From contig CAUVXB020000002.1 of NCBI GenBank assembly GCA_963555825.3, positions 960,001 through 1,024,000 on the forward strand: DNA of 64,000 bases, given 5' to 3'. This document shows, one piece after another, positions 49,489 to 61,759 of this stretch. A program made the translations under genes and the position numbers. The notes beneath the pieces are model-generated. The model worked only from the letters and a program-made list of their open reading frames with translations, made no database searches and was not told where the DNA came from. Numbering within the stretch: position 1 is the stretch's first letter; every line of letters begins with the position of its first letter. This DNA is from Alphaproteobacteria bacterium (GTDB taxonomy: Bacteria > Pseudomonadota > Alphaproteobacteria > JAAXGF01).

Positions 49489-50892
49489 ATGCTGCGCGTC
49501 CTCTATTTCGTTTTCGTCGTCGCGCTCGCCACCCTGGCGGCGCTTTGGCTCGTTGACCTGCCCGACGCAGTCACCATCGACGGACCCGACTATCAGCTGA
49601 CCACGTCGCTGTCGGTGCTGATCGTCGCGGTCGCCGCGATCGCCGTCGTCTGGGCGCTGGTCTATCACGTTTGGCGCTGGCTGCGCGGCGGGCCACGACG
49701 CATCGCCGCTGGTTGGTCGGCGCGCCGCCACGACCGCGGCTACCAGGCGCTGACCAAGGGCCTGGTCGCGATCGCCGCGGGCGACGCCAAGGCGGCGCAG
49801 CGCTTCGGCCGCGATTCGGGCCGCCTGCTCGACAACCCGCTGAACCTGCTGGTGCTGGCGCAATCGGCGCGGCTCACCGGCGACGAGACCGGCGCGCGGC
49901 GCCATTTCCAGGCCATGCTCGTGCATCCCGAGACCGAGTTCCTCGGCCTGCGCGGCCTGTTGGTGCAGGCGACCAACGCGGGTGACTGGGAAGCCGCGCT
50001 GGGCTATGCGCGGCGCGCCTACGCGCTCAGGCCCGAGACCGAATGGGTCGGCAACGCGCTGTTCGACCTCCAAGCCCGCGCCGGCGACTGGCGCGCGGCG
50101 CAGAAGACGCTCGAGGCGGCGGTCCGGCGCAAGCATGTCGCCGCTGGCCACGCGCCGCGCCGCCGCGCGGTATTGCTCGCCGAGCGCGCCCGCGCGGCCT
50201 ATGGCGACGGCGAGGAGGCCGCGGCGCTCGGCCTGGCGCGTGAGGCGCACAAGCTGGCGCCGTCGCTGACCGCCGCCGCGGCACTCGCCGCCGGGTTGCT
50301 GGCGAAAACGGGCAAGAAGCGCGCGGCGGCCAAGGTGATCGAGGCGGCGTGGCGCCTCGCGCCGCACGGCGAGTTGGCAGCCGCTTACGCCGCGCTCGGC
50401 GCCGGCGAGAGCGCGCTGGAGCGCGTCAAGCGCCTCGAGCGCCTGCACGCCCTCAACGCGGACCATCCCGAGAGCCACCTGGCGCTCGCCCAAGCCGCGC
50501 TCGACGCCGAGCTCTGGGGCGCCGCGCGCAACCACCTGCTGGCGGCCGCCGACCGGCAACCGTCACAGTGCGTCTACCGCCTGCTGGCCACCGCCGAGGA
50601 GCGCGATTCGGGCAGCGCCGAGGCGGTGCGCAACTGGCTGATGAGCGCCGCCTCGGCGCCGCCCGATCCGGCCTGGCTGTGCGACAAATGCGGCGACGCG
50701 GCGGCCGAATGGAGCGCGCGCTGCGAGGCCTGCGGCGCCTTCGACAGCTTAGGTTGGAAACTGCCGCCGACGCCCGCGCATCTCTCGGCGGCGCCGGTTA
50801 CCACGCCGCTGCCGCGCGCCGACGACGCACCGCTTCCGTCGGCCTCGATCGCGCCGCCGGGTGCCGTTGACGACATCGCGACGCGGGAGTAG
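49489..50892 (+). CDS. HemY-N/TPR membrane protein
   Basis: Two TM, ALTKGLVAIAAGD, TEFLGLRGL, TPRs, C-terminal CxxC..CxxC. Confidence 0.88.
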   Translation: MLRVLYFVFVVALATLAALWLVDLPDAVTIDGPDYQLTTSLSVLIVAVAAIAVVWALVYHVWRWLRGGPRRIAAGWSARRHDRGYQALTKGLVAIAAGDAKAAQRFGRDSGRLLDNPLNLLVLAQSARLTGDETGARRHFQAMLVHPETEFLGLRGLLVQATNAGDWEAALGYARRAYALRPETEWVGNALFDLQARAGDWRAAQKTLEAAVRRKHVAAGHAPRRRAVLLAERARAAYGDGEEAAALGLAREAHKLAPSLTAAAALAAGLLAKTGKKRAAAKVIEAAWRLAPHGELAAAYAALGAGESALERVKRLERLHALNADHPESHLALAQAALDAELWGAARNHLLAAADRQPSQCVYRLLATAEERDSGSAEAVRNWLMSAASAPPDPAWLCDKCGDAAAEWSARCEACGAFDSLGWKLPPTPAHLSAAPVTTPLPRADDAPLPSASIAPPGAVDDIATRE

Positions 50893-50904
50893 CTTGGCGC
50901 CCGT

Positions 50905-50979
<75 letters not shown>

Positions 50980-51456
50980 TATTTTTCAATAGGTTACGTG
51001 AATCTCTTCTTCACCATCTTTTGACCGAGTGACCTTAAAGTGAGCTGACTATTTCACTTCACAGGTCGCTCACATACTCATTTTGTCGACCGGCTCGGGC
51101 GGCTCCTTCCGAACGAAATTGTGATTTGGCAGGCTGTGTTGCGCCTGATCACCAAGACCAAACGCGTGCCTTACTCAGTTATCCAAGGGGGTAGCGTATG
51201 GGCCACCCGGGGGTCTATGGATACGTTTGTATGAACCGCGCTACGAGATCAATTATTTGGTTGGTACCATTGATCGGTCAAATTCGACGAATTCTCGGAC
51301 ATTGACGTTTAGTTTTCCGGCTGCCTCATTCCGAGGTCCGCTTTCGAGCGGTATGCCGACATGGAATGCCTTGTCCCGCGATCCAGTGTCTCTGAGGTCT
51401 GCTTACGAGTGGAAACCGGACATTGCAGCGTGGTTCGTCTAACGTCAGCTTCTAGC

Positions 51457-53038
51457 CGAGGGTGTTGAAGAAGTTGTTCGATCGGTCGGGGTTGCTGTGA
51501 TTCCCTGCTTGTGATGATTTGAGCAGGGGATCGAAGCGATGATGGGCGAACCTGTTGGTCGACAAGACCGTCTATTCTATGCGTTCGATCTCGAGGCTAT
51601 GGTACCGGCCGATCATTTGTTGCGCCGGATCGATGCGGCTTTGGACCTGAGCTGGCTGCGCGGCGAGCTGAAGACCCATTACAGTCACCTGGGCTGCCCG
51701 TCGGTCTGTCCCGAGCTGATGGTCCGGATGCTGATTGTTGGCTACTGCCATTCGATCCGTTCGGAGCGGCGGCTGTGCCAGGAGGTGAAGGTGAACCTGG
51801 CGTACCGCTGGTTCTGCGGCTTAGGCTTGGAGGACAAGGTTCCCAACCATTCGACGTTTTCGGTGAACCGGCACGGCCGGTTCCGCGCGAGCGATCTGCT
51901 GCGCAAGGTCTTCGAGGATGTCGTGCGGCGCTGCATGACGGCGGGTCTGGTCGGTGGCGAGGGCTTTGCCGGGGACGCCTCGGTGATCGAGGCCAATGCC
52001 AGCCGTTATCAGCGCATCGAGGGCTCGGAGGTCGATTGGACGGCCGAGCAGCGAGCCAGTCGCCCGGTGAGTGAGTACCTGGCCGCGCTGGAGAGCGAGA
52101 ACCCGCCGACCGACCCCGTGCGCGAGCCCAAGGCGATGTCGCCGAGCGACCCCGCGGCGGCCTGGACGACGCGTGGGCGCGCCAAGGTGATGTTCGGCTA
52201 CAGCCTCAACTATCTGATCGACACCGGCCACGCCGTCATCGTCGATGTCGAGGCGACGCCGACGCGCATCTCGAAAGAAGTCGTGGCCACCGAGACGATG
52301 ATCGAGCGCACGCAAGAGCGCTTCGCGCTCAAGCCCGAGCGCCTGGCCGGCGATGTCGCCTATGGCACGGGCGAGATGCTCGGCTGGCTTCTCGACCATG
52401 ACATCGCGCCGCACATCCCGGTCTGGGACAAGAGCGAACGCGACGATGGCATCTTCTCACGGGCCGACTTCATCTACGACGAGGCGCGCGACCGCTACAT
52501 CTGTCCCGGCGGCAAGGCCTTGACGACCACCGGCAATCTCCACTCCGACAACACCTATCGCTATCGCGCCAGCAAGCGTGATTGCGACGCCTGCGCGCTG
52601 AAGCCGAGATGCTGTCCCGACACAGCGGCGCGCCGGGTCCCGCGCGAGGTGAACGAGGCGGCTCGTGACCACACCCGCGCCTTGATGGAGACCGAGGCTT
52701 ACGCGGCGTCGCGCACGGAACGTAAGAAGATCGAAAGGCTCTTCGGCGAGGCCAAGCACATTCTCTCGATGGTTCGCCTGCGATTGCGGGGCCTGACCGG
52801 CGCCCGCGACGAGTTCCTGCTGACCGCCACCGTCCAGAACCTGAGACGCCTCGTCAATCACACCACGAGACCGCCACCACGGCCCATGATGGCTTGATCC
52901 ATGCCGCAAAGCCTCATCCAACCAAGCCATAGGCGCAAAACCGCCTCGGCAGCGCGCCAAGGCGGAAACGAAAACATTTGCTGCTTCTATAAGCCGACAC
53001 CGGAACGCCGTTCCGATACGACTTCTTCAACACCCTCG
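51457..53038 (+). mobile_element. IS1182-family element
   Basis: Perfect IR CGAGGGTGTTGAAGAAGT / ACTTCTTCAACACCCTCG; inserted in a 24-nt array unit. Confidence 0.92.
51539..52897 (+). CDS. IS1182-family transposase
   Basis: VPADHLLR, SERRLC..NLAYRWFCG, PNHSTFS, GDVAYG, KIERLFG. Confidence 0.93.
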   Translation: MMGEPVGRQDRLFYAFDLEAMVPADHLLRRIDAALDLSWLRGELKTHYSHLGCPSVCPELMVRMLIVGYCHSIRSERRLCQEVKVNLAYRWFCGLGLEDKVPNHSTFSVNRHGRFRASDLLRKVFEDVVRRCMTAGLVGGEGFAGDASVIEANASRYQRIEGSEVDWTAEQRASRPVSEYLAALESENPPTDPVREPKAMSPSDPAAAWTTRGRAKVMFGYSLNYLIDTGHAVIVDVEATPTRISKEVVATETMIERTQERFALKPERLAGDVAYGTGEMLGWLLDHDIAPHIPVWDKSERDDGIFSRADFIYDEARDRYICPGGKALTTTGNLHSDNTYRYRASKRDCDACALKPRCCPDTAARRVPREVNEAARDHTRALMETEAYAASRTERKKIERLFGEAKHILSMVRLRLRGLTGARDEFLLTATVQNLRRLVNHTTRPPPRPMMA

Positions 53039-53042
53039 GCTA

Positions 53043-53290
53043 TGTGTGGACGGCCCCGGTTTGGCAAGGGTTGTTTTGACGGTGATGCAAGTTGGTCGGG
53101 TGCGGCTATGTGTTCGGCCTGTTTGCGCGATACGACGATCGCTGGCCCTAATGCGATCCGCGGATCGGGTCCCAACTAAACCCACGAGCTCAGTGGCTCC
53201 GTAGCCAAGACGGGTTTCTCCGATCCCCGGTGTTCGACCGGTCTTGCATTACCTCACGATCACCCTGCCAAAGGGTTTAAGGCGTCTGTC
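53043..53290 (-). ncRNA. putative bridge/seek RNA region of IS1111-type element (second copy 57033-57282)
   Basis: Long non-coding end containing short matches to the element termini (TATGTGT, TAATG) and to the insertion flank (TAGC); inferred from IS110/IS1111 biology. Confidence 0.6.
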
Positions 53291-54322
53291 TCAAGCGGCG
53301 GTGACTGCTGGCTGACGGTAGGTTCCACCGTTGGCGAGCAGCGCCCAGGCGGTTCGTGCGTTCTTGTTGGCCAGCGCCACGGCGGCGAGCTTGGTCGGTT
53401 TGCGCGCCATGAGATCGCCCAGCCAAGGGTTCTTCTCGAAGTTTGATCTTCGCCCGTGGCGTATCACCGTCATGGCGCCGGCGACGAGCAGCCACCGGAG
53501 GTAGTGGTCACCCGCCTTGGAGATGCGGCCGAGCCGCTGCTTGCCGCCGGTCGAGGTCTGTCTGGGCACCAGACCGATCCAAGCCGCCAGTTCACGCCCC
53601 GATCTGAACACCGAAGGGTCGGCGATCGAGGCCGCCAGCGCGCTCGCAGTGATTGGCCCGATGCCGGGTATGGTCGCCAGACGCTGGCTGACCTCGGTCG
53701 CTCGATGCCAGGCATGAATGCGCTGCTCGGTGGTGGTGATCTCACGCTCCAGCGATAACAACTGCCGCGCCAGTCCTTCCAGGCATGTTCGTGCCAATGG
53801 CGGGATGCGCTCATCGCCCTCATCAGCGATGACCGCGAGGAGTTCCTTCACCTGCGGCAGCCCGACCCGGGCGACGACCCCGAACTCCGCCATGTGCGCG
53901 CGGATCGCGTTGACCAGCATGGTCCGCTGCCGAACCAGGAGTTCGCGCGTCCGGTGGTCCATCAACACGCTCTGCTGCGCGGCCGTCTTGACCGCCACGA
54001 AACGCATCGATGGCCGCGTTACCGCTTCGCAGATCGCTTCGGCATCCGCCGCGTCGTTCTTGTTGCGCTTGACGTAGGGCTTCACGTAAGCCGCCGGCAT
54101 GATGCGCACCTCATGGCCAAGCGCCCCGAGTTCCCGCGCCCAATGGTGCGACGTCGCGCAGGCCTCGATACCGACCAGACAAGCCGGCTGCTTGCTGAAG
54201 AACGGCACAACCTGGCGGCGCCTCAGTTGCCGGCGGATCACGGTCTCGCCTGAGACATCGACCCCGTGAACCTGGAAAACGTTCTTCGCAAGATCAAGTC
54301 CGATCGTGTTAACCTCGGTCAT
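53291..54322 (-). CDS. IS110-family recombinase
   Basis: IGLDLAK, IEAC, KNDAADAEAI DEDD motifs; IPGIG, GLVPRQTSTGG. Confidence 0.95.
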   Translation of the reverse strand: MTEVNTIGLDLAKNVFQVHGVDVSGETVIRRQLRRRQVVPFFSKQPACLVGIEACATSHHWARELGALGHEVRIMPAAYVKPYVKRNKNDAADAEAICEAVTRPSMRFVAVKTAAQQSVLMDHRTRELLVRQRTMLVNAIRAHMAEFGVVARVGLPQVKELLAVIADEGDERIPPLARTCLEGLARQLLSLEREITTTEQRIHAWHRATEVSQRLATIPGIGPITASALAASIADPSVFRSGRELAAWIGLVPRQTSTGGKQRLGRISKAGDHYLRWLLVAGAMTVIRHGRRSNFEKNPWLGDLMARKPTKLAAVALANKNARTAWALLANGGTYRQPAVTAA

Positions 54323-54556
54323 AGGACGGCTCCTTTGTACGTGATCAGCCAACAGCTACCACTTCTGGCACCTAGATGCCGCGTGGGGCCGTCCACCCCA
54401 TTATGAGCAGACATTAGGCTCGCTGCGCTGCGACGTCTGCTTTCCGCTCGGAAGCGGACGTGCATGTCATGAAAATTGGAAGCCGCACGTATTAGGTCCG
54501 GTTACCGCCCGAAAGCGGACGTCGCGCACCTACGTCGCTAATGTCTGCTGCTGACC

Positions 54557-56238
54557 CAGCCTGTGTGAAAACGTCGATGGTGTTATGATTCTCTTGTGCT
54601 TTGGCGGGAGGGTCTGATGAAGCGTTTTGTGGAGGGTGTCGATCGCAGCCAGGGCACGTTGTTTCCCGAGCGCCTGGAAGACTGGATCGGCGAGGACACC
54701 CCGGTTCGGGCGATCGACGTCTTCGTCGATGAGCTCGATCTTGGGGGTCTCGGGTTCGACCGGGTCGCGCCGCTGGCGACCGGCAGGCCGGCCTATCATC
54801 CTTGCGATTTGTTGAAGCTCTACATCTACGGCTATCTCAACCGGGTTCAGTCGAGCCGTCGGCTCGAGAGGGAGGCCGGGCGCAATGTGGAAGTGATGTG
54901 GCTGGTCGGCCGGCTGGCGCCGGATCACAAGACGATCGCCGACTTCCGCAAGGACAACGGCTGCGATCCGCAAGGTCTGCGCCCGGTTCGTCGCCCTGTG
55001 CCGGCAACTGGGGCTGTTCGCCGAGGCGAGCGTGGCGATCGATGGCGCCAAGTTCAAGGCGGTCAACAGCCGGGACAGGAACTTCACGCGGGCCAAGATG
55101 GCGCGGCGGGTGGCGCAGATCGAGGAGAGCGTTGCACGCTATCTGCAGCAACTCGACAGCGCCGACCGGCAAGAGCCGTCGCTGGCGCGCACGACCAAGA
55201 CGACTCGTCTGGCCGACAAGATTGCGATCCTCAAGGAGGAGATGCGGCGCCTGAAGGCGCTTGAAGTCGAGAGGCGTGCGAGCCCGGACCAGCAGAGCTC
55301 TCTGAGCGATCCCGATGCCCGCTCGATGGCGACGAGCGGCCGGGGTTCCGGCGTGGTGGGCTACAACGTTCAGGCCGCCGTCGACACCAAGCATCACCTG
55401 ATCGTTGCCCACGAGGTGACCAATCAGGGCACCGACCGCGCCCAGCTCTCAGCCATGGCGAAGCGGACCAAGGCGGCTCTGGAGACCGACGAGTTGGATG
55501 TCGTTGCCGATCGCGGCTACTACAACGGCAAGGAGATTCTGGCCTGCGATGAGGCCGGCATCACCGTCACGTTGCCTAAGCCGCTGACCTCGGGAGCCAA
55601 GGCCAAGGGCCGCTTCGGCAAACAGGACTTCGTCTATCTGGCCGCCGACGATGTCTATCGCTGCCCGGCCGGCGAGCGTTTGGTCTACCGCTTCACCAGC
55701 CAGGAGAGTGGGCTGAGCATGCGGCGCTACTGGACCAACGCCTGTCAGGGATGCGCCATCAAGCATCGCTGCACCACGGCCAAGCAGCGCCGCATCACCC
55801 GTTGGCAGCACGAACACATTCTCGAGGCCGTCGAGAGGCGGCTCGACGAGCACCCGGAGGCGATGCGTCGGCGGCGCGAGACGGCCGAGCAACCCTTCGG
55901 CACCCTCAAGGCCTGGATGGGCGCGACGCACTTCCAGATGAAGACGCTGAAGCGGGTGAGGACCGAGATGGCCTTGCACGTGCTGGCCTACAATCTCAAG
56001 CGCGTCATGAACATCATGGGCATCGACCCGCTGATCGCGGCGATCAGGACGGCATAGCGCCCCTGCGCCGACAATTACGCCCATACCCGGCCACATCGCG
56101 GCTCACAACGGCGCCAGCCGGCCGAAAAGCCCGCACGAGCGGCGAAAATCCATAATCCCGGAAAACACGTCCCGACTGATCATCCAAACCCAAAGACGCG
56201 CCACACAGAAATAGCAGCAAACGTTCTCACACAAACTG
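54557..56238 (+). mobile_element. IS1182-family element (frameshifted copy)
   Basis: IR CAGCCTGTGTGAAAAC / GTTCTCACACAAACTG; TSD GACC. Confidence 0.9.
54617..56057 (+). pseudogene. IS1182 transposase, frameshifted near 54960
   Basis: AACGGCTGCG versus AACGGCCGTGCG in the intact copy at 58609 (2-bp deletion). Confidence 0.9.
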
Positions 56239-56374
56239 GACCCAAAGCGGACCTCTTCTTTCTCCAATTGGAGTGACTGCTTTTGACCCCGACGAGATGT
56301 ATCTGGTCCTGGCGGCTTTTCACGGGATCTAGACATTTATACAAGAGAAACTGGTCCGGTGCTATGATGGGCCC

Positions 56375-56995
56375 ATGTCACAGATCGAATCTCTTTTCGT
56401 CACCCGTCTCTACCGCTCTGCCCTGTCCGAGTTCTGCAAGGCGCCGGATGCGGCCGAGCTTGAAACCTCCTGCCTGTCGATTGCCGATGATGATAAGGCC
56501 GGGCAGGTATGGTGCGAGGAACATGATTATCCGGGTTATACCAGCTATGCCTCGCTGGACGATCTGGCTTGGCGGTTTCCGATCTTCAAGGATCTGGTCC
56601 CGGTGCTCGATAAACATGTCGCGACCTTTGTCAAGGACTTGCAATTCGATCTGGACGGCAAGAAGGTCAGGCTGAATAGTCTGTGGATCAACATCTTGCC
56701 CGAAGGCGGCGTGCATACGTCGCATTTGCATCCCCATAGCGTGATCAGCGGCACCGCCTATGTCACGGTGCCGAACGGCGCAAGTGCCATCAAGTTCGAA
56801 GACCCGCGGTCGGCAATGATGATGGCGGCACCGGAGCGCGAGGTCGAAGCACGGAACGAACTGCGCAAGTTCATCTATGTCGTGCCCCAGGCAGGCGAGG
56901 TTTTGCTTTGGGAAAGCTGGCTACGCCACGAAGTTCCTCAGAACAAGGCCGATGAGGAACGCATCAGCATCAGTTTCAATTATGGCTGGGAGTGA
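56375..56995 (+). CDS. TIGR02466-like putative 2OG-Fe(II) oxygenase
   Basis: YPGYTSYASL, WINIL, HLHPHSVISGTAY, FEDPR, WESWLRHEV, RISISFNY. Confidence 0.88.
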   Translation: MSQIESLFVTRLYRSALSEFCKAPDAAELETSCLSIADDDKAGQVWCEEHDYPGYTSYASLDDLAWRFPIFKDLVPVLDKHVATFVKDLQFDLDGKKVRLNSLWINILPEGGVHTSHLHPHSVISGTAYVTVPNGASAIKFEDPRSAMMMAAPEREVEARNELRKFIYVVPQAGEVLLWESWLRHEVPQNKADEERISISFNYGWE

Positions 56996-57032
56996 CGTGC
57001 CCGTGGAGGGTTGTCCCGTCCACACATGGCTA

Positions 57033-58395
57033 TGTGTGGACGGCCCCGATTTGGCAAGGGTTGTTTTGACGGTCATGCAAGTTGGTCGGGTGCGGCTATG
57101 TGTCCGGCCTGTTGATGCGGTGCTCTTGACCGCTGGCCCTAATGCGATCCGCGGGATCGGGTCCCAACTAAACCCACGAGCTCAGTGGCTCCGTAGCCAA
57201 GACGGGTTTCTCCGATCCCCGGTGTTCGACCGGTCTTGCATTACCTCACGATCACCCTGCCAAAGGGTTTAAGGCGTCTGTCTCAAGCGGCGGTGACTGC
57301 TGGCTGACGGTAGGTTCCACCGTTGGCGAGCAGCGCCCAGGCGGTTCGTGCGTTCTTGTTGGCCAGCGCCACGGCGGCGAGCTTGGTCGGTTTGCGCGCC
57401 ATGAGATCGCCCAGCCAAGGGTTCTTCTCGAAGTTTGATCTTCGCCCGTGGCGTATCACCGTCATGGCGCCGGCGACGAGCAGCCACCGGAGGTAGTGGT
57501 CACCCGCCTTGGAGATGCGGCCGAGCCGCTGCTTGCCGCCGGTCGAGGTCTGTCTGGGCACCAGACCGATCCAAGCCGCCAGTTCACGCCCCGATCTGAA
57601 CACCGAAGGGTCGGCGATCGAGGCCGCCAGCGCGCTCGCAGTGATTGGCCCGATGCCGGGTATGGTCGCCAGACGCTGGCTGACCTCGGTCGCTCGATGC
57701 CAGGCATGAATGCGCTGCTCGGTGGTGGTGATCTCACGCTCCAGCGACAGCAACTGCCGCGCCAGTCCTTCCAGGCATGTTCGTGCCAATGGCGGGATGC
57801 GCTCATCGCCCTCATCAGCGATGACCGCGAGGAGTTCCTTCACCTGCGGCAGCCCGACCCGGGCGACGACCCCGAACTCCGCCATGTGCGCGCGGATCGC
57901 GTTGACCAGCATGGTCCGCTGCCGAACCAGGAGTTCGCGCGTCCGGTGGTCCATCAACACGCTCTGCTGCGCGGCCGTCTTGACCGCCACGAAACGCATC
58001 GATGGCCGCGTTACCGCTTCGCAGATCGCTTCGGCATCCGCCGCGTCGTTCTTGTTGCGCTTGACGTAGGGCTTCACGTAAGCCGCCGGCATGATGCGCA
58101 CCTCATGGCCAAGCGCCCCGAGTTCCCGCGCCCAATGGTGCGACGTCGCGCAGGCCTCGATACCGACCAGACAAGCCGGCTGCTTGCTGAAGAACGGCAC
58201 AACCTGGCGGCGCCTCAGTTGCCGGCGGATCACGGTCTCGCCTGAGACATCGACCCCGTGAACCTGGAAAACGTTCTTCGCAAGATCAAGTCCGATCGTG
58301 TTAACCTCGGTCATAGGACGGCTCCTTTGTACGTGATCAGCCAACAGCTACCACTTCTGGCACCTAGATGCCGCGTGGGGCCGTCCACCCCATTA
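57033..58395 (-). mobile_element. IS110-family (IS1111-type) element, copy 2
   Basis: Same ends and identical protein as copy 1; non-coding end locally diverged. Confidence 0.9.
57283..58314 (-). CDS. IS110-family recombinase
   Basis: Translation identical to 53291..54322. Confidence 0.95.
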   Translation of the reverse strand: MTEVNTIGLDLAKNVFQVHGVDVSGETVIRRQLRRRQVVPFFSKQPACLVGIEACATSHHWARELGALGHEVRIMPAAYVKPYVKRNKNDAADAEAICEAVTRPSMRFVAVKTAAQQSVLMDHRTRELLVRQRTMLVNAIRAHMAEFGVVARVGLPQVKELLAVIADEGDERIPPLARTCLEGLARQLLSLEREITTTEQRIHAWHRATEVSQRLATIPGIGPITASALAASIADPSVFRSGRELAAWIGLVPRQTSTGGKQRLGRISKAGDHYLRWLLVAGAMTVIRHGRRSNFEKNPWLGDLMARKPTKLAAVALANKNARTAWALLANGGTYRQPAVTAA

Positions 58396-58548
58396 ATCCC
58401 GGAAATTAGAAAGGGCGGGCCGCAACGTCCGCTTTCCGCTCGTTAGCAGACCCTCGCGCCGAGGAATTCAGAAATCCGGCAGTCAATGTCTGGTTCGCGC
58501 GACAAAGCAGACGTTGGAGGCGACACCGTCTAACGTCTGCTGGTGACC

Positions 58549-60232
58549 CAGACTGTGTAAAAACGTCGATGGTGTTATGATTCTCTCGTGCTTTGGCGGG
58601 AGGGTCTGATGAAGCGTTTTGTCGAGGGTGTCGATCGCAGCCAGGGCACGTTGTTTCCGGAGCGCCTGGAAGACTGGATCGGCGACGACAACCCGGTTCG
58701 GGCGATCGACGTCTTCGTCGATGAGCTCGATCTTGGCGGCCTCGGGTTCGACCGGGTCGAGCCGCTGGCGACCGGCAGGCCGGCCTATCATCCTTGCGAT
58801 TTGTTGAAGCTCTACATCTACGGCTATCTCAACCGGGTTCAGTCGAGCCGTCGGCTCGAGAGGGAGGCCGGGCGCAATGTGGAAGTGATGTGGCTGGTCG
58901 GCCGGCTGGCGCCGGATCACAAGACGATCGCCGACTTCCGCAAGGACAACGGCCGTGCGATCCGCAAGGTCTGCGCCCGGTTCGTCGCGCTGTGCCGGCA
59001 ACTCGGGCTGTTCGCCGAGGCGAGCGTGGCGATCGATGGCTCGAAGTTCAAGGCGGTCAACAGCCGGGACAGGAACTTCACGCGGGCCAAGATGGCGCGG
59101 CGGGTGGCGCAGATCGAGGAGAGCGTTGCGCGCTATCTGGACCAGTTGGACAGCGCCGACCGGCAAGAGCCGTCGCTGGCGCGCACGACCAAGACGACTC
59201 GTCTGGCCGACAAGATCGCGATCCTCAAGGAGGAGATGCGGCGCCTGAAGGCGCTTGAAGTCGAGCGGCGTGCGAGCCCGGACCAGCAGATCTCTCTGAG
59301 CGATCCCGATGCCCGCTCGATGGCGACGAGCGGCCGGGGTTCCGGCGTGGTCGGCTACAACGTTCAGGCCGCCGTCGACACCAAGCACCACCTGATCGTC
59401 GCCCACGAGGTGACCAATCAGGGCACCGACCGCGCCCAGCTCTCAGCCATGGCGAAGCGGACCAAGGCGGCTCTGGAGACCGACGAGTTGGATGTCGTTG
59501 CCGATCGCGGCTACTACAACGGTAAGGAGATTCTGGCCTGCGATGAGGCCGGCATCACCGTCACATTGCCTAAGCCGCTGACCTCTGGAGCCAAGGCCAA
59601 GGGCCGCTTCGGCAAACAGGACTTCGTCTATCTGGCCGCCGACGATGTCTATCGCTGCCCGGCCGGCGAGCGTTTGGTCTACCGCTTCACCAGCCAGGAG
59701 AGGGGGCTGAGCATGCGGCGCTACTGGACCAACGCCTGTCAGGGATGCGCCATCAAGCATCGCTGCACCACGGCCAAGCAGCGCCGCATCACCCGCTGGC
59801 AGCACGAGCATGTTCTCGAGGCCGTCGAGAGGCGGCTCGACGAGCACCCGGAGGCGATGCGTCGGCGGCGCGAGACGGCCGAGCATCCCTTCGGCACCAT
59901 CAAGTCCTGGATGGGCGCGACGCATTTCCAGACGAAGACGCTGAAACGGGTGAGGACCGAGATGGCCCTGCACGTGCTGGCCTACAATCTCAAGCGCGTC
60001 ATGAACATCACGGGCATCGACCCGCTGATCGCGGCGATGAGGACCGCATAGGCCTCTCTGCGCCGCAAATTGCGCCCATATCCGGCCAAATCGCAGCTCA
60101 CACCGGCGCCAGCCGGCCGACAGGTCCGCACGAGTGGCGAAAATCCTTAATCCCGGAATACCCGCCGCGACGGATCATCGAAGCCAAAGACGCGCCGTAC
60201 AGATCACGCAGCAAACGTTCTTACACAGTCTG
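58549..60232 (+). mobile_element. IS1182-family element (intact copy)
   Basis: IR CAGACTGTGTAAAAAC / GTTCTTACACAGTCTG; TSD GACC. Confidence 0.92.
58609..60051 (+). CDS. IS1182-family transposase
   Basis: GRPAYHP, SSRRLERE, PDHKTIADFR, IDGSK, ADRGY, EHPFGTIK. Confidence 0.94.
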   Translation: MKRFVEGVDRSQGTLFPERLEDWIGDDNPVRAIDVFVDELDLGGLGFDRVEPLATGRPAYHPCDLLKLYIYGYLNRVQSSRRLEREAGRNVEVMWLVGRLAPDHKTIADFRKDNGRAIRKVCARFVALCRQLGLFAEASVAIDGSKFKAVNSRDRNFTRAKMARRVAQIEESVARYLDQLDSADRQEPSLARTTKTTRLADKIAILKEEMRRLKALEVERRASPDQQISLSDPDARSMATSGRGSGVVGYNVQAAVDTKHHLIVAHEVTNQGTDRAQLSAMAKRTKAALETDELDVVADRGYYNGKEILACDEAGITVTLPKPLTSGAKAKGRFGKQDFVYLAADDVYRCPAGERLVYRFTSQERGLSMRRYWTNACQGCAIKHRCTTAKQRRITRWQHEHVLEAVERRLDEHPEAMRRRRETAEHPFGTIKSWMGATHFQTKTLKRVRTEMALHVLAYNLKRVMNITGIDPLIAAMRTA

Positions 60233-60261
60233 GACCCGAAGTCGACCTTGAGCAGGTCAAT

Positions 60262-60585
60262 TCAAACGCTTTGCATGGCGTTCACAATCGCCCTTGTCAG
60301 TGTCAGAAAGCGGCAGCAGACGTCGCCCTCAGGGTCCAGCCGCAAGACATCGGCCTTGAAAGCTTCTTGTTTGAGGCCGCCCCAAGCAACGACAGTGCCC
60401 TCGAGTGTTTCACCCGGGCGCACAGGGCGATGGAAGCCGCTGATCTGAAATCCGCCAATCGACCAGTCGGTGGTCTTGTAATTGTGATCCTCGAAGCGAA
60501 GTGTCAGCCGCGGCATCACGTGACGTGAATGTTGACGCTGCTCGCGCCCGCCGGGGAACTTTGGATTGCTCTTCTCCCGCCCCAT
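60262..60585 (-). CDS. stand-alone PilZ-domain protein
   Basis: EQRQHSR (RxxxR) and DWSIGG (DxSxxG) c-di-GMP motifs; AGAGG RBS. Confidence 0.8.
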   Translation of the reverse strand: MGREKSNPKFPGGREQRQHSRHVMPRLTLRFEDHNYKTTDWSIGGFQISGFHRPVRPGETLEGTVVAWGGLKQEAFKADVLRLDPEGDVCCRFLTLTRAIVNAMQSV

Positions 60586-60634
60586 CCCCAACTGCCTCTT
60601 TGCGGCTCATGTTGACCGAGAATCCTCAGATGAC

Positions 60635-61759
60635 CTAGTGTCCCGATTCCGAAGTTCGCATGATTTTCGCCTGCTGTTCAGCGATTTCGATTGTTCGGAG
60701 GCAGAAGCGCTGGATGGCGCCGAGGATGTCATCGGCGGATTTGGTCCATTTGAAGGGTTTGGGGTTCTGGTTTGTCGTGTCGATGTAGTCGAGGATGGTG
60801 CGCTCCAACTCCTTGGTGGAGCGATGGACGCCGCGCCTGATCTGCTTGTCGGTCAGCAGCCCGAACCAGCGCTCGACCTGGTTCAGCCAGGAGGCGCTGG
60901 TGGGTGTGAAATGGGCCTGCCAGCGCGGCCGTTTGGCGAACCAGTCGCGGATCGCCTTGGTCTTGTGGGTCCCGTAGTTGTCCATGACGATGTGGATGTC
61001 GAGATCAGCAGGGACGTTCGCCTCGACGAGGTCGAGGAATTTGCGGAACTCTCGGGCCCGATGGCGCGGGAAACATTTGCCGATGATCTCTCCCGTGGCG
61101 ATGTCGAGGGCCGCGAAGAGAGAGGTCGTGCCGTGGCGCTTGTAGTCGTGGCTGCGCCGCTCCGCCTGCCCGGGGCGCATCGGCAAGAGGGGCTGGGAAC
61201 GGTCCAGGGCCTGGATCTGGCTCTTTTCGTCGACACAGAGAACCAGGGCACGATCCGGCGGCGCCAAATACAGACCGACGATGTCGCGGACCTTCTCCAC
61301 GAAGAAGGGATCGCTCGACAGCTTGAAGGTCTCCGAGCGATGCGGCTGCAAGCCGAAGGCCCGCCAGATGCGATGAATGGTCGAGGGCGCGTGGCCGCTC
61401 GCCCGCGCCATCGAGCGAAGGCTCCAATGGGTCGCGTCCGGCGGCGTCTCTTCCAGCGTCAGCCGGACCGCTTCCGCGATGGCGTCATCGCCGATTTGAC
61501 GCGGCGCGCCGGGGCGGGGTTCGTCGTACAGACCGTCGAGGCCCTCCGCCGCATAGCGGCGACGCCACTTGCCCACGGTGTCCGCGCTCGCCTCGAGACG
61601 AACGGCGATCTCCTTGTTCTCCAACCCTTCCGCCGCCGCCAAGACGATCCGAGCCCGCCGCGCAAGCCCCTGCGACGTCTTGCGACGACGAGACAGCGCC
61701 TCCAATTCGGCGCGCTCGTCATCGCTCAAAGAGATCGTCACCGCCACTCTCGCCATCAA
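60635..61759 (-). CDS. IS630-family transposase
   Basis: Translation identical to 18228..19352. Confidence 0.95.

Follow-up and report, generated by a model that had tools for sequence, protein, structure and literature searches.

A dispersed, extragenic composite repeat, probably of the REP/BIME kind, and its insertion sequence integration sites in an alphaproteobacterial genome

The repetitive extragenic palindromic (REP) sequences of Escherichia coli, also called palindromic units (PU), and the bacterial interspersed mosaic elements (BIMEs) are imperfect palindromes that lie outside genes in tens to hundreds of copies, have linkers of fixed length and family-specific sequence, and serve as insertion sites of insertion sequences (IS). 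Neighbouring units alternate in orientation in E. coli BIMEs and in REP doublets forming hairpins (REPINs). In E. coli, REP/BIME elements affect mRNA stability, and BIMEs have been reported as sites for nucleoid-associated or topoisomerase-like proteins. IS elements that recognise REPs include IS1397, ISKpn1 and IS621. Here we describe a cluster of palindromic units interspersed with five IS in a 64,000-nt stretch of an alphaproteobacterial genome of 6.04 Mb, 65% G+C and two contigs, C1 and C2 (the stretch, C2:960001-1024000, is hereafter the window, and positions without a contig name are counted from its first letter). We consider it probable that three diverged copies of one composite repeat, hereafter the module, are present in the region, and that this repeat is dispersed, extragenic and REP/BIME-like, with 24-nt units that are IS integration sites. 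We class it with the REP/BIME elements, as a so far undescribed repeat that is a hot spot for IS.

REPs have also been described as targets of ISPpu9, ISPpu10, ISPa11, ISPsy8, ISRm19 and ISRm22 (Tobes and Pareja 2006, PMC1525189), and the precedents for REP/IS hot spots given in that study come from Pseudomonas, Sinorhizobium and Neisseria. In Brucella, the ~100-bp palindromic repeats Bru-RS1 and Bru-RS2 are described as hot spots of IS711 (PMC2266754), and guide-RNA use has been shown for IS110 and IS1111 elements (PMC11208160, PMC11187229). In Alphaproteobacteria, CGTC-tagged REPs include orphan families without a flanking REP-associated tyrosine transposase (RAYT) gene; by the account in the main text of Di Nocera et al. 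2013 (PMC3733652), families 1-4 have a terminal unpaired CGTC, stems of 8-9 bp starting with A-T, loops of 4-5 nt and CCA tails.

The region 50500-61000 was read directly, and repeats, open reading frames (ORFs), tRNAs and protein families were mapped there. Once the five IS are taken out, what is left is a succession of 25- and 24-nt palindromic units and nine spacers of exactly 22 or 36 nt (in order 36, 22, 22, 36, 22, 22, 22, 36 and 22 nt). A previous interpretation of the window from its letters alone, the sequence-only reading, had put forward these units, spacer lengths and IS positions, and the tabulated coordinates bear them out. The 25-nt units start at 51336, 51397, 54435, 54496, 58427 and 58488, and the 24-nt units at 51444 (split), 54543 (split), 56275 (degenerate), 57018 (split) and 58535 (split). 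Three split 24-nt units regain their 24 nt after removal of the IS together with one copy of the target duplication, which is GC for IS-A and GACC for both IS-C copies. The period of 154 nt proposed earlier (25+36+25+22+24+22) holds as well.

The cluster consists of three diverged neighbouring module copies, of which E1 and E2 stand head-to-head and share one 24-nt unit, while E3 follows after a gene; the apparent 154-nt period results from this head-to-head arrangement around a common unit. E1 (51336-51443, plus strand, A orientation, linker type t2) scores 81.5 bits with R1, a model of the module built from sequence only, and comprises a 25-nt unit (51336-51360), a 36-nt linker (51361-51396), a second 25-nt unit (51397-51421) and a 22-nt linker (51422-51443). 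The 24-nt unit common to E1 and E2 is split by IS-A and IS-B1 at its central hexamer TAGCTA and survives as 51444-51456, 53041-53042 and 54404-54412. E2 (54413-54542, minus strand, B orientation, linker type t1, 100.3 bits) is made of a 22-nt linker (54413-54434), a unit (54435-54459), a 36-nt linker (54460-54495), a unit (54496-54520) and a 22-nt linker (54521-54542), and is followed by a 24-nt unit with a TGACCC centre that is split by IS-C1 (54543-54556 and 56243-56252). E3 (58405-58534, minus strand, B orientation, linker type t3, 93.5 bits) has the same parts, namely a 22-nt linker (58405-58426), a unit (58427-58451), a 36-nt linker (58452-58487), a unit (58488-58512) and a 22-nt linker (58513-58534); the right 9 nt of a 24-nt unit (58396-58404) precede it directly behind IS-B2, and a 24-nt unit split by IS-C2 (58535-58548 and 60237-60246) follows it.

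Between E2 and E3 lie a 22-nt linker (56253-56274), a degenerate 24-nt unit with a TGACCC-type centre (56275-56298) and a gene for a putative 2-oxoglutarate (2OG)-Fe(II) oxygenase of 206 aa (56375-56995, plus strand; Pfam PF13759, E = 2e-35). Two units, at 56275 and 57018, had been called degenerate. This description fits the first; in the second, the left 15 nt (57018-57032) do not represent half of a unit but consist of an inverted piece left over from the IS-B left end (CCGTCCACACA) and of the hexamer TGGCTA, and the same palindromic junction recurs at the IS-B copy at C2:525397.

The 25-nt unit was modelled as a weight matrix from 53 examples selected with a regular expression, whose 11 fixed positions were softened with pseudocounts; the matrix is biased at these 11 columns and carries no information on the flanks. 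At 18 bits or more it gives 117 matches, counting both strands, where an order-2 Markov simulation gives 0; at 16 bits or more the figures are 138 and ~8. With the strands merged, both contigs together carry 142 units of at least 14 bits and 108 of at least 18 bits. A generic palindrome search without a matrix (GTC...GAC with at least 7 of 8 arm pairs) was abandoned for its high background (275 hits against 162 in simulation). The units are extragenic, with 2 of the 108 overlapping a crude coding mask that covers 59% of random 25-mers, the mask being heuristic rather than a gene call.

The geometry of the cluster recurs throughout the genome, with the peaks at 22 and 36 nt that had been predicted from the window. 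Among the 30 pairs of adjacent units less than 400 nt apart, 23 lie exactly 61 nt start-to-start, corresponding to a 36-nt spacer, and 3 lie at 60 nt; all 23 pairs at 61 nt have both units in the same orientation (12 AA, 11 BB). GAC ends exactly 22 nt upstream of 46 of the 108 strong units and 36 nt upstream of 24, and GTC starts exactly 22 nt downstream of 34 and 36 nt downstream of 20, with counts of 0-11 at other offsets save one peak of 19 at 52 nt, inside the IS-C end. The full module therefore reads 24-22-25-36-25-22-24, measures ~178 nt, has rough dyad symmetry and is dispersed over both contigs, most loci carrying a single module and not an array. In the A orientation, the 24-nt palindromes 22 nt outside the 25-nt pair have the centre TGACCC upstream and TAGCCA downstream, one being inverted with respect to the other. 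Intact 24-nt units with a TAGCCA centre stand exactly 22 nt from 25-nt units elsewhere in this genome and in G029, a genome of another family, and intact units of both centre types are present in this genome, in G029 and in G004, a genome of the same family. The 25-nt units have 8-bp arms and a 9-nt centre, with stems that begin G-C, T-A, C-G (composition of 102 units) and the invariant half-sites GTC..G and C..GAC, and their mean pairwise identity is ~77%. Further sub-families show a 24-22-25-22 geometry with different unit and linker sequences (for example at C2:2449315, 2618140, 3069998, 2723006/2723114 and 3616580/3616688, and at C1:381997); two of them combine into a palindromic module of larger size, whose 25-nt units have opposite orientations and lie at a distance of 108 nt.

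These properties place the repeat close to REPs and BIMEs, which are short (20-40 bp) imperfect palindromic units, present in many extragenic copies (here 108 units against 0 expected) and organised in modules with linkers of characteristic length and sequence. The likeness to E. coli BIMEs extends to the mosaic structure and to the use of the palindromes as IS insertion sites, whereas the sequence differs, the module combines palindromes of three kinds (24, 25 and 25 nt), and an IHF (integration host factor)-like site is absent from it. Like REPINs, the modules contain REP doublets at a fixed distance with overall dyad symmetry, and some copies form one long hairpin; REPIN units, however, are inverted and have a cognate RAYT, whereas the paired units here are direct and have none. 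Following the main-text description of the CGTC-tagged REPs (PMC3733652), the two share an alphaproteobacterial host, an extragenic position, frequent dimers with spacers of conserved length and the lack of a flanking tyrosine-transposase gene, but the units described here start G-C/T-A/C-G, have a 9-nt centre and lack the CCA tail. A C stands in front of GTC in 49 of the 108 units; the tails seen most often are CTC, ATG and GTC, and CCA does not figure in the top eight. A miniature inverted-repeat transposable element (MITE) has terminal inverted repeats, a target duplication and a related autonomous IS; in the module, the outer 24-nt units are inverted copies of one type. The sequence-only reading had not recognised a described system in this region; we found no description of the family in print, although the supplementary listings of PMC3733652, which was compared by its text, might include a similar unit, and in kind the repeat does belong with the known REP/BIME elements. 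A literature search by sequence string returned only one chance match, in a primer table.

The origin of the spacers was addressed with an alignment of 23 modules, made of the three in the window and 20 of the 23 other pairs at 60 or 61 nt; the pairs left out were one of mixed orientation, one overlapping and one low-scoring. The alignment spans 150 columns, needs no more than two 1-nt gaps and has a mean column identity of 68%. In pairwise comparison the linkers reach an identity of 0.42-0.45, and shuffled letters one of 0.25-0.28. The linkers form homologous families, the 36-nt linkers falling into groups. Of nine window linkers tested, eight have a counterpart at a different locus (59-89% identity; 99.9th percentile of shuffled sequences, 47-59%); the 36-nt linker of E1 is 89% identical to that of locus L005, and the 36-nt linker of E3 75% identical to that of locus L011. 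As judged from these alignments, the spacers, which had been described as unrelated and are so among themselves within the window, are diverged linkers of one dispersed composite repeat and not unique acquisitions. The spacing would be exact because whole modules descend as copies from common ancestors.

This homology bears directly on the idea, raised in the sequence-only reading, of a system for cassette capture or array building. In a CRISPR (clustered regularly interspaced short palindromic repeats)- or integron-like system of this sort, a recombinase or nuclease acting in trans would add palindromic sites, unique spacers of measured length and, occasionally, genes. The exact 22/36-nt spacing with variable sequence, the one gene between units and the start of the cluster near a tRNA gene would fit such a system. 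The spacers, however, are homologous to linkers at 20 other loci, which largely refutes it, and most loci hold a single module where an array would be expected. A CRISPR array has near-identical direct repeats, unique spacers and cas genes; the units here are only ~77% identical, the spacers are homologous, and no Cas1 was found in the genome, which is 99.3% complete. An integron cassette array has an integron integrase next to cassettes made of an ORF and attC. Here a single ORF stands between units, followed by a site that is in part left over from an IS; no integrase-family match was found among the scanned window ORFs from 49192 on, and no genome-wide search for IntI was made. Of the cargo genes supposed to be embedded in the array, only the oxygenase gene lies inside the cluster, and it is a neighbour, not demonstrably cargo. 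The first 25-nt unit begins 357 nt downstream of tRNA-Thr(cgt) (50905-50979, plus strand; found by ARAGORN and as Rfam RF00005), in agreement with the ~350 nt given before. Repeats of the tRNA of at least 13 nt, including any counterpart of its end, are absent elsewhere in the 64-kb window, and no repeat of the tRNA end bounds an island there, so a role of the gene as an island attachment site was rejected. The 356 nt between tRNA and first unit (50980-51335) are, by eye, A/T-richer than the genome. Taken together, we regard an array-building system as extremely improbable. The further proposal that the units are sites for enzymes acting in trans did hold, as they are used by the transposases of at least three IS types.

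The 24-nt end units, with centres TGACCC or TRGCYA, are preferred integration sites of these three IS types: for IS-C, for IS-A with its MITE and for IS-B, most copies sit at one position of the palindrome, as is typical of REP-targeting IS. The clearest case is IS-C, an IS1182-family element with 30 copies of at least 1.4 kb in the genome, mostly 99.5-100% identical. In 23 of its 28 intact left ends GTC lies exactly 14 nt upstream, so that the IS sits in a half-unit, and in 21 of the 28 a 25-nt unit lies exactly 61 nt upstream. An identical 4-bp duplication, mostly GACC, flanks 19 of the 22 copies with both ends, and for copies sitting in a module, the module is on the same (left) side of the IS. 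The near-identity of the IS-C copies, set against the wide divergence of the modules next to them, shows that the modules predate the insertions and are not carried along by the IS. In the window, IS-C2 (58549-60232, plus strand) is intact, with a transposase of 487 aa (58588-60051) and GACC duplications at 58545-48 and 60233-36. IS-C1 (54557-56238, plus strand; GACC duplications at 54553-56 and 56239-42) has a broken frame (ORFs 54596-55264 and 55032-56057); the high-depth contigs of four public sequencing runs all carry 2 extra bases behind 54961 at this site, and IS-C1 thus probably carries a 2-bp deletion.

IS-A (51457-53038, plus strand), also of the IS1182 family, is present in a single copy with inverted ends CGAGGGTGTTGAAGAAG and a transposase of 452 aa (51539-52897); a GC duplication is likely (51455-51456 and 53039-53040), the boundaries being uncertain by ~2 nt. 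A MITE of ~170 bp with IS-A-like terminal inverted repeats sits in the central hexamer of 24-nt units (for example C2:272834-273004, 2180354-2180524, 2645269-2645438 and 3447639-3447808). At 9 of 13 ends of the MITE/IS-A type, counted by eye, GTC stands exactly 9 nt outside, with insertion in the TAGCCA hexamer. The third type, IS-B, belongs to the IS110 family: IS-B1 (53043-54403, minus strand) encodes a transposase of 353 aa (54352-53291), named "RNA-guided transposase" in NCBIfam, has subterminal inverted repeats ATGTGTGGACGGCCCC and is inserted just behind the central hexamer, and IS-B2 (57033-58395, minus strand) is 98.8% identical to it. In the four IS-B copies with both flanks read, GGCTA precedes the IS in 4/4 and TGGCTA in 3/4, and the 9 nt behind the IS end in GGAC, AGAC or GGAA. 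Three longer IS-B copies of ~2540 bp (C2:525397-527857, 1067012-1069551 and 2450450-2452989) have ~1.17 kb extra near position 235 of the 1361-bp form found in the window.

According to these flanks, IS-C inserts with a 4-bp GACC duplication and in one orientation, IS-A and its MITE insert in the TAGCCA hexamer and IS-B right behind the hexamer, and five such insertions have broken up the window cluster. By analogy with the REP-recognising transposases described in PMC1525189, IS-C may recognise the hexamer in its palindrome context, and IS-B may find its site through a guide RNA, as its family does. A comparison of the non-coding end of IS-B with the target flanks for guide complementarity gave only 6-8-mers, which is chance level in 260 nt. 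Palindrome-specific insertion, REP clusters as hot spots and the participation of an IS110-family member are all shared with the known REP-recognising IS. Two of the three IS types found here belong to IS1182, a family that the abstract of PMC1525189 does not name as a REP recogniser, and all three aim at the centre of one class of 24-nt unit, as do the relatives of IS-C. Compared by description only, Bru-RS (PMC2266754) is similarly an alphaproteobacterial palindromic repeat, with a small centre containing TA to which an IS of the IS5 superfamily is drawn. The IS concerned, IS711, is small and its duplication is TA in YTAR, whereas that of IS-C is GACC.

Relatives of the IS-C transposase with 71-82% amino acid identity occur in many alphaproteobacterial metagenome-assembled genomes (MAGs), in Bradyrhizobium and in Methylocystis, and their flanks show a 24-nt palindrome of the type described above, surrounding a GACC or GGTC duplication. 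At 61 of their loci with a recognisable left end, a 25-nt unit of at least 10 bits lies upstream in 15, and 11 of these 15 units start 60 or 61 nt from the IS, the 25-nt unit often being 21-22 nt from the 24-nt palindrome. R1 gave only three weak matches of 16-20 bits on 80 loci around IS-C relatives; the module in full is restricted to its lineage, but the geometry of the doublet is seen again among the relatives.

The order is sampled by 13 genomes, mostly fragmented short-read MAGs, and R1 was run on 31 genomes, including that of the window. Matches with E of 0.001 or lower were obtained in 8 of the 31, again including the window's own, with scores of 88 bits in G004 and 95 bits in G029, both of which have intact 24-nt units as well as the 22/36/22 spacing. 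An IS-C end directly adjoins the corresponding half-unit in G029, on a contig that may be misbinned or transferred. Among public sequencing runs, the segment 56253-57032 was found in 20 of the 24 listed, from 10 studies, and was nearly complete (86-99% of sampled words) in runs labelled with different organisms or habitats. Contigs of four runs, from four studies, bridge the unit/IS junctions at 54380-54581 and at 56204-57033 (or to 57056), and the identical IS junctions in the four runs indicate that the same or a very close strain recurs in unrelated data sets.

The lengths of the module raise the question of what keeps them. Module length has been retained while the linker sequence drifted to ~45% identity, and we infer from the alignment that it is under constraint, as gaps are far fewer than free drift would give by informal expectation. 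The copying itself, or a bound protein, may be what enforces the exact lengths. An RNA fold would do so too, if the modules were structured RNA genes or RNA-level regulators such as terminators, mRNA stabilisers or small RNAs, a structured RNA having been among the earlier suggestions. The extragenic location agrees with this, as does the effect of E. coli REP/BIME elements on mRNA stability, and two of the three window modules fold singly into a long hairpin (z -4.3/-6.0 on the plus strand and -2.4/-5.5 on the minus strand). The third folds no better than shuffles (z -0.6 and -1.4), and both strands fold alike, as expected for dyad symmetry of DNA. Across the 23 modules, no covariation was detected in the unit stems, where 82.1% of arm cells are paired against 84.1% after shuffling and positions 4/22 and 6/20 of the first-unit stem are unpaired in 13 and 16 of 23 copies; nor was it detected in the whole-module fold-back (column i with 151-i; 56.2% paired against 55.9% shuffled), and RNAalifold gave -1.78 kcal/mol. 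Registered fold-back pairing of 56%, compared with 32-43% in slid registers, indicates rough dyad symmetry of the DNA. The modules have no Rfam match with E up to 1, the tRNA being the only one found. Unit hairpins and fold-back were thus rejected as conserved RNA structures for lack of covariation, and we consider an RNA function that imposes the lengths very unlikely.

The modules could instead be phased sites for a host DNA-binding protein, kept by host selection, with IS targeting as a side effect. Consistent with this are the conservation of linker length without conservation of sequence, the invariant half-sites, which do not covary, and an A/T-rich tract near the module centre (A or T makes up 90-100% of columns 78-80). 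Against it, the centre-to-centre distances of 46.5 and 61 nt are not whole helical turns, and the modules have no known protein partner and no IHF-type consensus, which appears in the 36-nt linker of 0/23 modules in a strict search and 1/23 in a loose one. Such a function is compatible with a REP/BIME-like repeat and concerns only what keeps its geometry; we find it quite unlikely.

The modules probably multiply, or did so in the past, as non-autonomous elements that depend on an enzyme acting in trans. The same has been described for the orphan CGTC REP families of Alphaproteobacteria, whose means of spread and persistence are raised as an open question in PMC3733652. The genome holds three RAYT-like Y1 transposase genes (PF01797; 67-79 bits against a cut-off of 80), located at C2:1867017-1867343 (L001, 229 aa), C1:1325246-1325575 (L002, 223 aa) and C2:2727747-2728007 (L003, 251 aa). 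The REP families associated with them are dispersed, with 17, 28 and 19 exact core copies, and the genome thus contains three classical REP/RAYT systems beside the orphan 24/25-nt family. The best case of a gene flanked by inverted units, at C1:27800-31100 (L128), is an adenylate-cyclase/TPR (tetratricopeptide repeat) gene and not a transposase, and was rejected as a mobiliser. This gene, for an adenylate/guanylate-cyclase and TPR protein of 607 aa, lies between 288-nt inverted repeats that are 93% complementary and include a module fragment, which looks like an inverted duplication.

Several observations weigh against the interpretation as a REP/BIME-like repeat. REP/BIME units alternate in orientation, but the inner pair of 25-nt units is direct in 23/23 pairs. 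A RAYT flanked by units, which is part of classical systems, is lacking: none of the three RAYT-like genes has a 25-nt unit within 1.5 kb, and inverted copies of a different REP family, specific to each gene, stand on either side. For these reasons RAYT was rejected as the mobilising enzyme. No mobilising enzyme for the modules was found among the RAYT-like genes and the genes flanked by inverted units. A target duplication of the module, or an IS with module-like ends, was not seen, no systematic search for them having been made, nor was an empty/filled pair, and the mobility of the modules is therefore putative. The near-absence of indels at ~45% linker identity exceeds what descent alone would give. 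Relatives are few and fragmentary, with strong R1 matches confined to G004 and G029. Finally, turnover was not observed in the contigs of the four runs, which show no empty sites or alternative alleles and never skip an IS, and which, since contigs drop rare variants, cannot exclude it.

A broader reading would combine these elements: the module could be either an orphan non-autonomous element or a host-kept protein-binding module, not linked to a RAYT, Cas or integrase gene, with its lengths enforced by machinery yet to be found, and the doublet of a 25-nt unit, 21-22 nt and a 24-nt unit could be an ancient, widespread alphaproteobacterial landing pad that channels several IS families, including RNA-guided IS110, away from genes. 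We put this forward as a speculation that is rather unlikely to be right as a whole.

With the region read as REP/BIME-like modules, an apparent new array system becomes a testable and mostly familiar repeat family in a poorly sampled alphaproteobacterial order. The locus is also a clear example of how elements of the IS1182 family can target a palindrome strictly and in one fixed orientation, a trait common to relatives in many genomes, including Bradyrhizobium, and such elements could serve as site-specific insertion tools. One class of unit struck by three unrelated transposition chemistries makes a natural system for studying what draws IS to REPs. A length conserved far better than the sequence, in a family without a cognate transposase, bears on the spread and persistence of orphan REPs, the question raised in PMC3733652. 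For annotation, the cluster is a warning that IS-dense regions can conceal regular repeat modules that resemble arrays. Directly after the cluster lies an IS630-family transposase gene (60635-61759, minus strand), with a 109-aa ORF without a Pfam match (60262-60591, minus strand) between the two, and the whole of 51.4-61.8 kb is dense in IS.

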